DNA of 10,824 nucleotides, taken from the IMG/VR virus record IMGVR_UViG_2690316273_000014. One strand, 5' to 3'. Positions within the stretch are counted from its first letter, which is position 1; each line of letters opens with the position of its first letter. The notes under the pieces are model-generated. The model searched no databases. It was not told the origin of the DNA and worked only from the letters and a program-made list of their open reading frames with translations. The DNA comes from a virus (Duplodnaviria; Heunggongvirae; Uroviricota; Caudoviricetes). Below, one piece after another: positions 1 to 10,456 of the stretch. Both the position numbers and the translations under genes were made by a program.

Positions 1-1284
1 CTACTTCTTCGCCTCTGCAACCACTTTGCTACCCACGCCGCGGTTATTGTATTCCCACATGCGGTTGTAGTTAGTGTCATTCAGATTGCGCTGTACTTCG
101 TCGTTATCATCAACGCTGCCGGTGTTACCCGCAAACGGACGATTAGAGATCACCGCATCAGCCCACGGTTTGGCTGTGTTAAAACCTTCGTTGATGGCGC
201 TATCACGGATCACTACCTGACCGTTGGTATTGGCATCAACATCCAGCGAGCGGCCCAGTTGCGCCACGCCATCACCGGAAGCATTGAAACGGCTGTTTAC
301 GGCGAGGAAACCGTAGTAAATGTTGGACAGCGTAGCCGGTGCAAACACATACGCTTCTTGCTGGGTACGGGAGTTCACCACGCGGAATTCGGTGTTATCG
401 AACACCACTGCGCCGCGACCAGAAACGATATCCACATCCCCTTCAATATAGCTGTTGGTCACCAGCGTACGCGGCTGGCGATTCGTTTCCAGACGGTTCT
501 GCACACCGCTGTTGGTGACAAAGAAGGTGTTCTGACGACCGAGAATGTTGACGTTATTGATCTGCACTTTGTCGCCATCAGTACGCAGTGCCACCGCCGG
601 ATGGTTACCCGCATCTACGCTATCGCCCAGCGTGTTTTCGATGGTCAGGTTTTGCAGTTGCAGGCCATTGTTTTGTGACCAGAAGACCGCAGAGCAGAGA
701 ACACCGATACTGTCGCTGCGTTTACTCTGGCAGCTATCGTACATATACCACGCCGGTTTACCTGGCATATATTTGCCGCGCGGGTTGACGTCGTGACGCC
801 AGTCGGCAGGGCTCATGCCACCATCAAGGGAAAGCCCAATCTTCACATCAATCGGTTTTTCACCTGTACCGTACAGAGTAATTCCACCCGGAGCGGCAGG
901 GACATACACCGTTCCCTGATACTCACCAGGCATCACGGCAATATACTGGCGCTTGTTGGTACGCTTGATAATTGCCGCATCTACCGCCGCCTGAATCGTG
1001 GTATGCGTTACACCTTGAGTACCCGCCGGGCCGACAACAAAGTCAGGTTGCGCAGGCAGGGTAATCGGGGAAGGATTCCACGCTGCCGCACCTGGTGTCA
1101 GGGATGCAAAATAGTGTTGAGCATCGAAATTCTGCGCTTCTTTTGCCGACAGAATCGGGCGAGAAGAGGTACCAGGCGCGGTTTGATCAGAAGGACGTTG
1201 ATCGGGCGGTGTTGAGCTACAGGCGGTCAGCGTCACGCCAAAAGCCAATGCCAGCGCCAGACGGGAAACTGAAAATGTGTTCAC
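1..1284 (-). CDS. ybhC: Host outer-membrane lipoprotein YbhC (pectinesterase-like / acyl-CoA thioesterase family), complete
   Basis: Complete 427-aa ORF with stop at 1..3. N-terminus MNTFSVSRLALALAFGVTLTAC looks like a lipoprotein signal with lipobox cysteine. Recognised from memory as E. coli YbhC, the gene on the gal side of lambda attB; no search run. Confidence 0.85.
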   Translation of the reverse strand: MNTFSVSRLALALAFGVTLTACSSTPPDQRPSDQTAPGTSSRPILSAKEAQNFDAQHYFASLTPGAAAWNPSPITLPAQPDFVVGPAGTQGVTHTTIQAAVDAAIIKRTNKRQYIAVMPGEYQGTVYVPAAPGGITLYGTGEKPIDVKIGLSLDGGMSPADWRHDVNPRGKYMPGKPAWYMYDSCQSKRSDSIGVLCSAVFWSQNNGLQLQNLTIENTLGDSVDAGNHPAVALRTDGDKVQINNVNILGRQNTFFVTNSGVQNRLETNRQPRTLVTNSYIEGDVDIVSGRGAVVFDNTEFRVVNSRTQQEAYVFAPATLSNIYYGFLAVNSRFNASGDGVAQLGRSLDVDANTNGQVVIRDSAINEGFNTAKPWADAVISNRPFAGNTGSVDDNDEVQRNLNDTNYNRMWEYNNRGVGSKVVAEAKK

Positions 1285-3134: not shown

Positions 3135-3737
3135 ATGAGCTATTTTCTGCGCAAAAAATGGATGGTAAATTTGTCCGGGGCAGGAAAAATTTTATGGGCG
3201 CTAAACATGAAAAAAGATTTGTATCCTTATTTGATTTGCATGACAGTTTCAGGCCTGATCTTTATTTTCTTTTTCTTCTGGTGGCGGGCAGATATTTACA
3301 GGGTCACGTTTCTTAATCAGAGTATATCCCACTATTACATTCTGTTTAGCATGGGAATAGCTTTTCTGTTATCTCTGTTTTGGGTTAAGAAGGGGATAGT
3401 AAAACAAAGCGGCTGGAAGAGTCTGTCAGCATACCTTAAGGTTTATGCAGGGATGTGCATATTTGCTGGATTTTTTCTGATTATACCCCTTACAACACTA
3501 ACTTATTTTTTGCCTGGAGAGACATCGTCTTATGTTGCACCGTATCGGTATACTTCCGGTAGTTCAAAAAGTTGTTCTGGAGCTGAGGTGGATGACCCCG
3601 ATCTACATGAGAATATTCGCATTTGCTATCCGTATGGCAATTATGAGTACGATAATATTATCTATGTTGAAAAGAAAATTAATACATTAGGTGCGGTAGT
3701 AACATATGCACAGACCGCGCGTGATGATACTGAATGA
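3135..3737 (+). CDS. Hypothetical integral membrane protein (about 3 predicted TM helices plus C-terminal soluble tail); opposite-strand accessory gene in the ea/b region
   Basis: 200-aa ORF on the strand opposite to all neighbouring early genes. Hydrophobic stretches LICMTVSGLIFIFFFFWW, YYILFSMGIAFLLSLFWV and VYAGMCIFAGFFLIIPLTTLTYFL. Region is visibly AT-rich. Start is uncertain: ATG at 3135, 3162 or 3207, none with a strong Shine-Dalgarno. Possible promoter elements TTTACG/TATTAT near 3101..3125 are weak. No lambda gene is recalled here. Confidence 0.5.
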   Translation: MSYFLRKKWMVNLSGAGKILWALNMKKDLYPYLICMTVSGLIFIFFFFWWRADIYRVTFLNQSISHYYILFSMGIAFLLSLFWVKKGIVKQSGWKSLSAYLKVYAGMCIFAGFFLIIPLTTLTYFLPGETSSYVAPYRYTSGSSKSCSGAEVDDPDLHENIRICYPYGNYEYDNIIYVEKKINTLGAVVTYAQTARDDTE

Positions 3738-6788: not shown

Positions 6789-6921
6789 TTTTTGGGACTC
6801 CTGGCTGATTAAGTATGTCGATAAGGCGTTTCCATCCGTCACGTAATTTACGGGTGATTCGTTCAAGTAAAGATTCGGAAGGGCAGCCAGCAACAGGCCA
6901 CCCTGCAATGGCATATTGCAT
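6778..6921 (-). CDS. cIII: CIII (FtsH inhibitor) with altered C-terminus, 47 aa
   Basis: Hand translation from ATG at 6921: [47 protein letters not shown]-stop. First 46 residues match lambda CIII as recalled (54 aa), including the amphipathic core. AAGGAG Shine-Dalgarno upstream. Confidence 0.85.
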
Positions 6922-6993
6922 GGTGTGCTCCTTATTTATACATAACGAAAAACGCCTCGAGTGAAGCGTAATTGGTATGCGGTAACGCCGCGC

Positions 6994-7362: not shown

Positions 7363-7380
7363 CTGTTCATATCCTCACAG

Positions 7381-7408
7381 ATAAAAAATCGCCCTCATCT
7401 TGGAGGGC
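7381..7408 (-). terminator. Candidate intrinsic terminator in the pL transcript, just upstream of ea10
   Basis: On the - strand: hairpin GCCCTC-caagat-GAGGGC (plus 7391..7408) followed by GATTTTTTAT (plus 7381..7390). Would be overridden by N antitermination. Confidence 0.5.
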
Positions 7409-7550
7409 AAAGAAGATTTCCAATAATCAGAACAAGTCGGCTCCTGTTTAGTTACGAGCGACATTGCTCCGTGTATTCACTCGTTGGAATGAATACACAG
7501 CGCTGTGTTTATTCTGTTGTTTGCGTGAAAATGAAATCCGCCTGAGCGGG

Positions 7551-8432
7551 TTATGACCACTTTTTGTTTGGGTTTCGTTGGTGAGCGTGGTTTACAGGAT
7601 TATTTGATATACCCCATAACTCTGACTCGCTTATCTCTACACGAGAGAAAGACCTGCTTTCTTTCAGTTCTTTTATAAACCTAGAACCTAAGATGACATC
7701 TATTGTACCAGAAAGTTCTTGTAAAAGATCTTTGTTTTTTCTGAGGAAGAAAATATCTTCTTTATATTTAATTTTTACATAGAATTTATTCTGTATTTTT
7801 AATATATCAAAGCATGGCAGATATCTATATCCCTCATATTTTCGCCACTGCTTAACAATTATAACATCTTTTTCATTTACTGCATTAATCAGCCCAAGAC
7901 CAAGTACAGGTATGAATATTCTATTGTCTGCCGAAAGCGTACAATTATCACCACCAGGCAAATATGTATAAATCATGTCGGAATTTTTATACGCATCAAC
8001 GAATGCACGTAAGAAGCGTACATATTTTTGCCATCCGTTTATACCGAATTTACCATATAAGTATTCTTTATTTGTTAGAAGAAAACTATTTGTATCAGGA
8101 TCCTTATCTACAGACCTGTCGATAAGATCTCCAACTACGTTTACAAAGTCAAAGACAGAGTTTAATAAGAACAATTGTCTTTCAGTAGGGCGAATTTCAA
8201 TTATGTAGCCAGGATGAAGACGATATTGCATCTGCTTACGAAGTATACCGAACGCTTGGGTCCGAGCATCTGAAAGCAACTTCTTGTCGCCATCGCCGTG
8301 AGCATTGTTTCTAATAAAACTGATATAATTTGCTAATTTTTCAGCCTCTTTTTTGTGTTTTTTTCGCTCTGATGCTGAGTCTATTGGTTTTGGTATGGAC
8401 TTGTAATCAATCTTCTTCATTACGTACCTCAT
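7551..8432 (-). CDS. Hypothetical 293-aa protein occupying the sieB/ral slot directly downstream of N; candidate superinfection-exclusion / abortive-infection / anti-restriction cargo
   Basis: Long uninterrupted ORF whose ATG (8432..8430) overlaps the N stop codon (8431..8429) as ATGA. Markedly AT-rich and lysine-rich, unlike the flanking lambda-like genes. No similarity to lambda SieB or Ral recognised and no motif confidently identified. Followed by a short hairpin plus T-rich tract at 7520..7549. Confidence 0.75.
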   Translation of the reverse strand: MRYVMKKIDYKSIPKPIDSASERKKHKKEAEKLANYISFIRNNAHGDGDKKLLSDARTQAFGILRKQMQYRLHPGYIIEIRPTERQLFLLNSVFDFVNVVGDLIDRSVDKDPDTNSFLLTNKEYLYGKFGINGWQKYVRFLRAFVDAYKNSDMIYTYLPGGDNCTLSADNRIFIPVLGLGLINAVNEKDVIIVKQWRKYEGYRYLPCFDILKIQNKFYVKIKYKEDIFFLRKNKDLLQELSGTIDVILGSRFIKELKESRSFSRVEISESELWGISNNPVNHAHQRNPNKKWS

Positions 8433-8752
8433 GCCAATGGAATGGATTCCCCTTTAACCTTTTGTCTTCCTTGACAAGTTATACCGAACTCACCTGGCTT
8501 GCTATACCAAACTCGATGATTCTTGCGCTCAATACGTTGCAGGTTGCTTTCAATCTGTTCGTGGTATTCAGCCAGCACCGTAAGGTCTATCGGATTCAGT
8601 GCGCTTTCTACTCGTGATTTCGGTTTGCGATTCAGCGAGAGAATAGGGCGGTTAACTGGTTTAGCGCTTACCCCAACCAACAGGGGATTTGCTGCTTTCC
8701 ATTGAGCCTGTTTCTCTGCGCGACGTTCGCGGCGGCGTGTTTGTGCATCCAT
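8429..8752 (-). CDS. N: Antitermination protein N, 107 aa
   Basis: From ATG at 8752: MDAQTRRRERRAEKQAQWKAANPLLVGVSAKPVNRPILSLNRKPKSRVESALNPIDLTVLAEYH..., including the arginine-rich boxB-binding motif. Diverges from lambda N in the C-terminal third. The track ORF extends upstream to 8884, but the N start is internal. Confidence 0.93.
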   Translation of the reverse strand: MDAQTRRRERRAEKQAQWKAANPLLVGVSAKPVNRPILSLNRKPKSRVESALNPIDLTVLAEYHEQIESNLQRIERKNHRVWYSKPGEFGITCQGRQKVKGESIPLA

Positions 8753-8909
8753 CTGGATTCTCCTGTCAGTTAGCTTTGGTTGTGTGTGGGAGTCGTAGTC
8801 CTGAACGAAAACACCCCGCAATGGCACATTGGCAGCTAATCCGGATTCGCACTTCCGGCCAATGCTTCGTTTCGTATCACACACACCAAAGCCTTCTGCT
8901 TTGAATGCT

Positions 8910-8940
8910 GCCCTTCTTCAGGGCTTAATTTTTAAGAGCC
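8910..8940 (-). promoter_or_regulatory. nutL: nutL site (boxB hairpin and boxA-like element)
   Basis: On the - strand, boxB GCCCTGAAGAAGGGC (plus 8910..8924) and an upstream boxA-like GCTCTTAAAAATT (plus 8927..8940), lying between pL and N as in lambda. Confidence 0.85.
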
Positions 8941-8985
8941 TCACCTTCAATGGTGGTCAGTGCGTCCTGCTGATGGCTTAAAATT

Positions 8986-9053
8986 ACAAGGAAGATTGTA
9001 TGTTGTAAACAAGAAATATTGTAAAAAGGGGCGTGAAAAACAAACTCCATTGT
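8986..9053. promoter_or_regulatory. 434-type left operator region (three 14-bp ACAA...TTGT sites) with pL
   Basis: Three 14-mers with the 434 operator outline: ACAAGGAAGATTGT (8986..8999), ACAAGAAATATTGT (9009..9022), ACAAACTCCATTGT (9040..9053). Promoter hexamers for pL not assigned with confidence. Confidence 0.7.

Positions 9054-9103: not shown

Positions 9104-10456
<1,353 letters not shown>

Follow-up and report, generated by a model that had tools for sequence, protein, structure and literature searches.

We put at roughly 0.55 the probability that gp48 of Escherichia phage 434 is a Nun-class transcription-elongation arrest factor, in which the arrest peptide would be carried by a new kind of targeting head. 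The protein ends with the peptide VNHAHQRNPNKKWS (aa 276-289; 7554..7595, minus strand), a Nun-type RNA-polymerase arrest tail identical at 14 of 14 positions to residues 96-109 of HK022 Nun. The initial annotation of the gene recognised no known domain in its product, a view which has to be revised for two parts of the protein: the C-terminal 14 residues are those of HK022 Nun, and the body has a predicted fold resembling the REC lobe of TnpB/Cas12. The Nun-like C-terminus as such is already on record, since the product (CPT_434_48) is designated as "Nun C-terminal peptide-containing protein" in the 2022 GenBank record of 434; the 434 genome announcement contains no discussion of gp48. A literature search retrieved neither functional work on gp48 nor any description of a TnpB-like head or of a two-class modular distribution of Nun tails, and no paper linking TnpB with Nun or describing RuvC-less REC-lobe proteins.

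Gene boundaries, genomic context and occurrence

The window, i.e. the whole 10,824-nt stretch of DNA that was analysed, begins with the host gene ybhC (1-1284, minus strand) and continues into a lambdoid prophage, the genes of which are arranged in the order int, xis, exo/bet/gam, kil, cIII, ea10, ORF, N, pL/oL, hex, 434 repressor and 434 cro. Escherichia phage 434 (OL657226/OL657227) is 100% identical to it across positions 7380-9000. The ORF reported initially at 7551..8432 is present on the minus strand and comprises 293 aa when counted from the first ATG, and this ATG (8432-8430) does overlap, as ATGA, the TGA stop codon of N (8431-8429). As the start codon, however, the second ATG at 8420 is likely, because the annotation, the register of the PHROG 12139 profile, which begins at residue 5, and all homologs, which start at the equivalent Met, agree on it. 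On the basis of the annotation, the profile register and the homolog alignments, the coding sequence of gp48 (UMO75312.1) is thus 7551..8420 on the minus strand and specifies 289 aa plus stop. The N/gp48 junction (8421..8432, minus strand), as seen from the sequence and the homologs, contains the upstream in-frame ATG, the N stop TGA and a GAGG Shine-Dalgarno sequence (8430-8427), which sits 6 nt ahead of ATG 8420. The same arrangement (...ATGAGGTa.g.aATG) is found in the homologous locus L004, and the junction is identical in the full-length E. coli prophage copies surveyed. Translational coupling to N, as proposed previously, or re-initiation is therefore plausible in view of a start located 8 nt past the N stop, but it would not proceed through the ATGA.

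The N antiterminator itself (8429..8752, minus strand; 107 aa according to the ORF list and the 434 record) carries a lambda-type arginine-rich motif (ARM), and in E. coli prophages it is always linked to gp48. Lambda matches only the N region and window positions 7380-7522, where the lambda features are N, ral and sieB; hence the assignment of the gene to the ral/sieB slot was correct, the lambda counterpart of the place of gp48 lying between N and ea10. The foreign composition noted initially was borne out as well: the GC content of gp48 is 0.346 (GC3 0.304), whereas N has 0.488 and the prophage part of the window 0.446, and the homologs are likewise AT-rich relative to their own loci.

That gp48 is a real gene and not a chance ORF follows from the identity to 434, the occurrence in E. 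coli and the existence of diverged homologs with pN well below pS. It was found in 117 of 5426 complete E. coli genomes, chromosomal in every case, and 29 of the 33 copies on viral contigs are preceded by a 434-type N with 97-100% identity and the same junction. The gene is absent from lambda imm434, a laboratory hybrid, which may be the reason why it has never been studied. Diverged members share 68% (P0003), 47% (P0005), 42% (P0004) and 37% (P0006) identity with gp48, and the homolog of L158 (290 aa) is clearly diverged, too; as the family comprises very few members, comparative evidence is limited.

Several copies are interrupted. The A7 homopolymer at window positions 8358-8364 (minus strand, gp48 codons 19-21) is shortened to A6 in L032 and extended to A8 in L033-L035, causing a frameshift; such changes of tract length could reflect on/off switching by slippage, pseudogenisation or an assembly error. 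Three prophage copies (L036:1-48, L037:288-348 and L038:246-306) are truncated near codon 107, and the sequence ahead of them (...gttggagtcattacc) is presumably an IS1 terminal repeat.

The Nun-type tail and its genomic distribution

The last 20 residues of gp48 match the C-terminus of the PHROG family "Nun-like transcription termination factor" (PHROG 5632), and the last 14 are identical (14/14) to HK022 Nun in the structure 6ALG (chain N). Nun residues 87-109 are the only part of the protein visible in the elongation complex, and all known arrest determinants are located there (Kang et al. 2017, PMC5386594). The identity covers N97, H98 and H100, which touch the rudder, the RNA and the template strand, R102, which pairs with the C-terminal carboxylate, and K106, K107 and W108, which occupy the pocket between the hybrid and the downstream DNA (PMC5386594), as well as the C-terminal Ser. 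The equivalents of Nun H93 and R94, which contact the upstream DNA duplex (PMC5386594), are missing: gp48 has N-N-P there, and these positions vary across the family. In Nun, the R94A substitution strongly weakens binding to RNAP, but does not lower maximal arrest (PMC5386594).

Every full-length family member, including that of L158, keeps the tail, VNHAH.R....KKW(S), at 37-68% overall identity. In the comparison of 434 with L002, pN was lowest in the tail (0.11-0.13 vs 0.41-0.47 in the body), while synonymous sites were saturated along the whole gene, tail included. The tail has thus been selected rather than recently copied and, judged by this codon comparison, it is the most strongly selected part of gp48. 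The same analysis rejected a reading of the tail as nothing more than a recombination scar specific to 434. The tail is preceded by an acidic linker (aa 221-275; 7596..7760, minus strand) with a pI of 5.0 and a pLDDT below 50, whose family-conserved motif KESRSFSRVEISES is kept in both subfamilies.

The DNA comparison showed that the segment 7484..7595 (minus strand) is nearly identical to HK022 DNA comprising the end of nun and the sequence downstream of it, 434 and HK022 sharing the tail codons and 67 nt after the stop (95.5% identity). HK022 (L005:2765-2850) diverges from 434 about 67 nt past the stop, near an annotated IS903 transposase gene, and the sequence at this break resembles an IS903 end. 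In the homologs, a canonical intrinsic terminator is located 5-25 nt past the stop. It is degenerate in 434 and HK022; in 434 its degenerate form is a hairpin, CCGC-TCAG-GCGG, with an interrupted U-tract right after the stop (7528..7549, minus strand). Further downstream, a comparison identified an intergenic block (7380..7522, minus strand) common to lambda and more than 300 lambdoid phages, at which the gp48 cassette has its left mosaic boundary; the block includes the terminator annotated at 7381-7410. The gp48-ea10 intergenic RNA (window 7363-7560, minus strand) folds well (z = -4.7) and contains a long perfect hairpin (GTGTATTCA...TGAATACAC); since it is mostly shared with lambda and more than 300 lambdoid phages, hundreds of phages without gp48 having the shared block, it is considered unrelated to the gene.

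When viral contigs were scanned with the back-translated tail motif, at least 120 stretches were obtained, representing at least 64 distinct proteins. Among the matches listed, the motif is followed by 0-1 residue at the C-terminus, with a single chance hit as the exception, and two classes can be distinguished: proteins of 79-123 aa with diverse arginine-rich N-termini, and the gp48 family of ~290 aa. The key tail residues are invariant across these two unrelated classes of heads among the matches listed. Nearly all of the 50 distinct tail genes with enough upstream sequence among these matches are preceded either by an N-like gene, at a distance of up to about 50 nt, or by the gene of a cI-like repressor, at 260-420 nt, and the sampled upstream neighbours of Nun-tail genes were N-like in 10 of 10 cases.

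In the matches listed, the ARM of the small tail protein is usually unlike that of the adjacent N. Classical Nun, for instance, follows an N with the motif GTAKSRYKARRAELIAERR, presumably of phi21 type, and a tail protein with a lambda-N-like ARM follows an unrelated N; such a mismatch points to a logic of targeting the transcripts of other phages. In five contigs (L050, L051, L080, L151 and L155) the classical 112-aa Nun is encoded 2 nt past an N gene with this GTAKSRYKARRAELIAERR motif, so that nun is not confined to N-less, put-dependent phages like HK022. Hafnia phage Pocitis76 (L006:2123-3165) has a tRNA-Gly gene just upstream of N and, after N, two tandem small genes, each with a different arginine-rich head and a Nun-type tail, one of these heads being nearly the lambda N motif.

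The gp48 homologs themselves occupy either type of location. In L004, L115, L132 and L158 an N gene ends 1-22 nt before them, the arginine-rich motifs of these N genes being different. The homologs of L002 and L039 come directly after a cI-like repressor gene, with no N gene, and the gap of ~310 nt can be aligned to the sequence between cI and nun of HK022, operator/promoter block included. This gap holds a stretch of ~75 nt nearly identical to HK022, and the stretch, part of an HK022-like leader, is presumably where putL lies. The position of the gene is exactly that of HK022 nun, behind pL and the leader.

Predicted head domain

AlphaFold modelling with a 12-sequence family alignment gave a confident core at residues ~10-220 (pLDDT mostly 80-95), residues 221-289 being of low confidence. 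According to the model, the alignment and the pI, the protein begins with a basic helical hairpin (aa 16-65; 8226..8375, minus strand), with helices at 16-38 and 43-65 (pLDDT 81-95) and a pI of 9.9 for residues 1-66. The following domain (aa 67-220; 7761..8222, minus strand) is similar in its predicted structure to the REC lobe of TnpB/Cas12 and consists of a strand (72-77), four helices (80-145, REC-like) and a beta-rich part with one helix (152-217, WED-like). In TnpB, the REC lobe is made up of the WED OB-fold barrel with a four-helix REC domain inserted between beta1 and beta2 (PMC10097598), and this feature is matched by the gp48 prediction. A Foldseek search with the model placed Cas12k and Cas12f at ranks 1-5 with weak E-values of 0.05-0.25. 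In hhalign, the family core aligned to 68 natural TnpB REC lobes with E-values of 0.002-0.004, vs 0.27-0.51 for reversed controls, at a probability of only 5-9%; the alignment is collinear and pairs conserved motifs (YIIEIRPTERQ with FVVRLYPNAAQ, IFIPVLGLGLI with LKLPKLGWVKT), sequence identity of the head to TnpB being about 10%.

The Pfam, NCBIfam and PADLOC scans of gp48 and all family members produced no match, nothing relevant was found with the family profile among PDB sequences, and within PHROG only family 12139 (of unknown function) and the Nun tail match gp48. The OrfB_IS605 and Zn-ribbon domains of Pfam are not matched, and gp48 has no room for a RuvC or TNB lobe: the RuvC domain with its D-E-D nuclease residues and TNB zinc finger is missing, the WED-like part being followed by the linker and the tail. 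The body of gp48 is predicted to have a TnpB/Cas12 WED+REC fold devoid of the nuclease lobe, on the basis of AlphaFold models built from shallow alignments (12-13 sequences) and with marginal sequence support.

The N-terminal sequence SERKKHKKEAEKLANY resembles the lambda N motif RRRERRAEKQAQW, and its reading as an ARM was considered and rejected: it is lysine-rich and not conserved, and the aromatic residue is Cys in P0003/P0004. A boxB-binding N-terminal ARM was not found in gp48 by comparison with Nun either, the Nun profile and the PDB sequence matching only the last 20-27 residues.

An exhaustive search retrieved distant relatives (P0010-P0016) with 25-33% identity over residues 72-220, which have neither the hairpin nor the Nun tail, the N-terminal hairpin thus being found only in the Nun-tail subfamily. 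They belong to a sister subfamily (P0010-P0023; e.g. L041:3039-3704 and L042:4069-4734) with the same REC-lobe-like head, a basic linker and another conserved C-terminus, either ...S.Y.RVDF..L.GK.V.GG..E.GKKR or ...IWT[VI]SGG.P..GK[KR]R. It sits on contigs resembling conjugative elements, with genes for ParB, ArdA antirestriction, SNase, RadC and SRAP as its neighbours. The viral and reference-genome collections contained no loci of the distant relatives, and their context in the protein database was uninformative on mechanism. The sister subfamily may represent a second head-plus-effector-peptide design.

Proposed function and rival explanations

As HK022 Nun does, the tail of gp48 would block translocation by threading into the active-site cleft of the E. 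coli elongation complex. It is connected by the ~55-residue, presumably flexible linker to a folded head of ~150 residues, predicted to consist of WED and REC and to have no nuclease lobe, and this head, together with the basic N-terminal hairpin, would bind a specific nucleic-acid feature. A candidate ligand is a short DNA motif accommodated in the WED-REC cleft, as in TAM recognition; alternatively, the OB-fold WED domain might bind a structured RNA. With the head bound, the tail would be concentrated locally around particular elongation complexes, and RNAP would be arrested there. Because the tail has no counterparts of H93/R94, and R94A weakens RNAP binding of Nun, arrest by gp48 should depend more on recruitment through the head than it does in Nun. 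RNAP binding, RNAP arrest and exclusion are what we infer for gp48 by analogy. Its most likely role is to exclude or handicap competitors, whether phages or mobile elements, as suggested by analogy to Nun and to the small proteins of this slot that combine a foreign ARM with a Nun tail. The exclusion or abortive-infection function suspected initially is therefore supported as far as an anti-phage function is concerned, by the Nun peptide and the nun slot. Abortive infection and restriction alleviation, by contrast, are without evidence, since no similarity of gp48 to SieB, Ral or any PADLOC defence model was detected.

HK022 Nun and gp48 have in common the last 14 residues, arrest determinants included, their location at the extreme C-terminus after a flexible segment, a place as the first or second gene of the early leftward operon, the shared downstream DNA and, as would be expected, a polymerase-jamming peptide tethered to selected elongation complexes. 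Members of the Nun family, however, are small (~80-125 aa; Nun itself 109-112 aa) and have no globular domain, Nun recognising lambda boxB via an arginine-rich helix, whereas gp48, a protein of 289 aa with no ARM and no H93/R94, has a helical hairpin and a confidently folded, TnpB-like domain of ~150 aa. The same tail, the slot after N and the head-plus-tail logic are also seen in the small ARM-containing Nun-tail proteins such as ORF42 and ORF43 of Hafnia phage Pocitis76, but their heads, arginine-rich helices of 20 residues, resemble the N proteins of other phages, and that of gp48 is globular.

The target, too, must differ from that of Nun. In the 434 record, nutL and nutR are annotated, and the boxB of nutL (GCCCTGAAGAAGGGC) is located at 8910..8924 (minus strand); we take the boxB and boxA of both sites to match the lambda sequences, GCCCTGAAGAAGGGC being that of lambda nutL. 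Since 434 itself depends on lambda-type nutL/nutR and would otherwise hit itself, the target of gp48 cannot be a lambda-type boxB, a constraint with which a protein devoid of an ARM is consistent.

With TnpB/Cas12 (IS200/IS605 OrfB), gp48 shares the predicted WED barrel and the four-helix REC bundle after the first strand, but not the RuvC/TNB lobe, catalytic residues, TnpA, transposon ends, a detectable omega-RNA or a Pfam OrfB match, and its head carries an RNAP-binding peptide in place of the nuclease. TldR and other exapted TnpB/Cas12f regulators are alike in having a TnpB-derived scaffold, often phage-encoded, that controls transcription without cutting DNA. TldRs are bilobed, with an inactivated RuvC lobe, and use a guide RNA for the steric block of a promoter. 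Unlike them, gp48 keeps the recognition lobe only and would act on the elongating polymerase by a separate peptide. That the head is a TnpB/Cas12 recognition lobe domesticated for RNA-polymerase arrest without the nuclease lobe, and probably without a guide RNA, is a tentative proposal from the predicted fold, to which we give somewhat less than even odds. If true, it would add to Cas12 and TldR a third way in which TnpB has been exapted, one in which only the recognition half is kept and acts on the elongating polymerase; the Nun tail would be a modular "arrest cassette" with interchangeable heads, and the sister subfamily on conjugative elements would be suggested to use the same design with another target.

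A TnpB-like fold also raises the question of whether the head binds a guide RNA which directs the tail to complementary DNA, like TldR. Domestication of TnpB as an RNA-guided transcription factor has occurred repeatedly, and the predicted fold would be in line with such a history. In TnpB, however, the RuvC lobe, missing from gp48, forms much of the surface for the omega-RNA scaffold and of the heteroduplex channel, and omega-RNAs overlap the 3' end of the gene (PMC10097598). Sliding-window folding of six homologs detected no consistent structure inside the gene, so that its 3' part holds no conserved or unusually structured RNA, and the sole element shared by the downstream regions of the homologs is the intrinsic terminator. 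No Rfam match other than the cIII thermoregulator was obtained near gp48, and neither an omega-RNA at or past its 3' end nor a transposon context was found, the contexts being phage early operons with completely different flanks, after N in some phages and after a put-like leader in others. RNA guidance is thus very unlikely. Quite unlikely, as well, is a passive tail, i.e. a recombination remnant shared with nun, the head alone acting, e.g. as a DNA-binding regulator or in anti-defence. The near-identical DNA of 434 and HK022, running from the tail codons to 67 nt past the stop, is indeed a typical mosaic boundary, and distant relatives with the same head have another tail and are found among anti-restriction genes on conjugative-element-like contigs. 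On the other hand, diverged members keep the peptide despite synonymous differences in the tail codons, pN is lowest there, and the motif is always terminal, its key residues being invariant in two unrelated head classes among the matches listed.

Self-regulation, the main alternative, in which gp48 is made together with N from pL and its tail brakes or times the phage's own or host transcription (e.g. by arresting non-N-modified polymerases or limiting leftward transcription in lytic growth or induction), is unlikely, yet it accounts for several features: the tight linkage to N with possible coupling (the 8-nt gap and the Shine-Dalgarno sequence overlapping the N stop), the adjacency conserved across N types, the failure to predict an own promoter for gp48, and the terminator directly after the gene in the homologs. 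Against it, the gene replaces nun in HK022-like phages, and nun mutations leave lytic growth and lysogenisation of HK022 unaffected (PMC4124055). Moreover, the ARMs of the small Nun-tail proteins usually differ from the adjacent N, a signature of targeting other phages, and the frameshifted and truncated E. coli copies suggest that the gene is dispensable for the phage. As for SieB-like abortive infection or Ral-like restriction alleviation, it is favoured by position only, gp48 and the lambda genes occupying the same place on the map, between N and ea10. There is no sequence or predicted structural relationship to SieB or Ral and no PADLOC similarity, membrane segments are not apparent in the model, and the recognisable parts of gp48 point to RNA polymerase and nucleic-acid binding, which makes such an activity extremely unlikely.

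The Nun-class arrest reading has implications beyond 434. Nun has been regarded as a one-off, a small phage protein excluding lambda by means of a peptide tethered to boxB RNA. The survey suggests that the arrest peptide is a portable module located beside N in many lambdoid phages, on ARM heads or on a globular head, and gp48 would then be a compact system for sequence-directed transcription arrest in a classic phage. A further prediction is that the roughly 2% of sequenced E. coli with gp48 would show exclusion phenotypes that are so far unexplained.

With regard to expression, gp48 lies in 434 within the repressed pL operon; expression of nun from the prophage is reportedly described by King et al. 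2000. A sieB-like promoter inside N had been suggested, but a scan of the coding strand at 8432-8900 predicted no sigma-70-like promoter inside or after N, a weak negative. Between hex and pL, the coding strand has no predicted terminator, so that pRM read-through into N and gp48 is conceivable. As the operon is repressed and no separate promoter is predicted, exclusion may need lytic expression or such read-through.

Some other features of the window deserve mention. The hex gene (9104-9508, minus strand; "repressor protection protein") occupies the rex slot, and its published start codon is wrong according to the 434 annotators. The lambda cIII thermoregulator RNA (Rfam RF01804, 88.5 bits) was detected at 6876-6934 on the minus strand, as expected for a lambda-like cIII. 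Finally, an AT-rich ORF of 200 aa (3135-3737, plus strand), annotated as a putative membrane protein, lies in the b-region opposite to int/xis and is moron-like.
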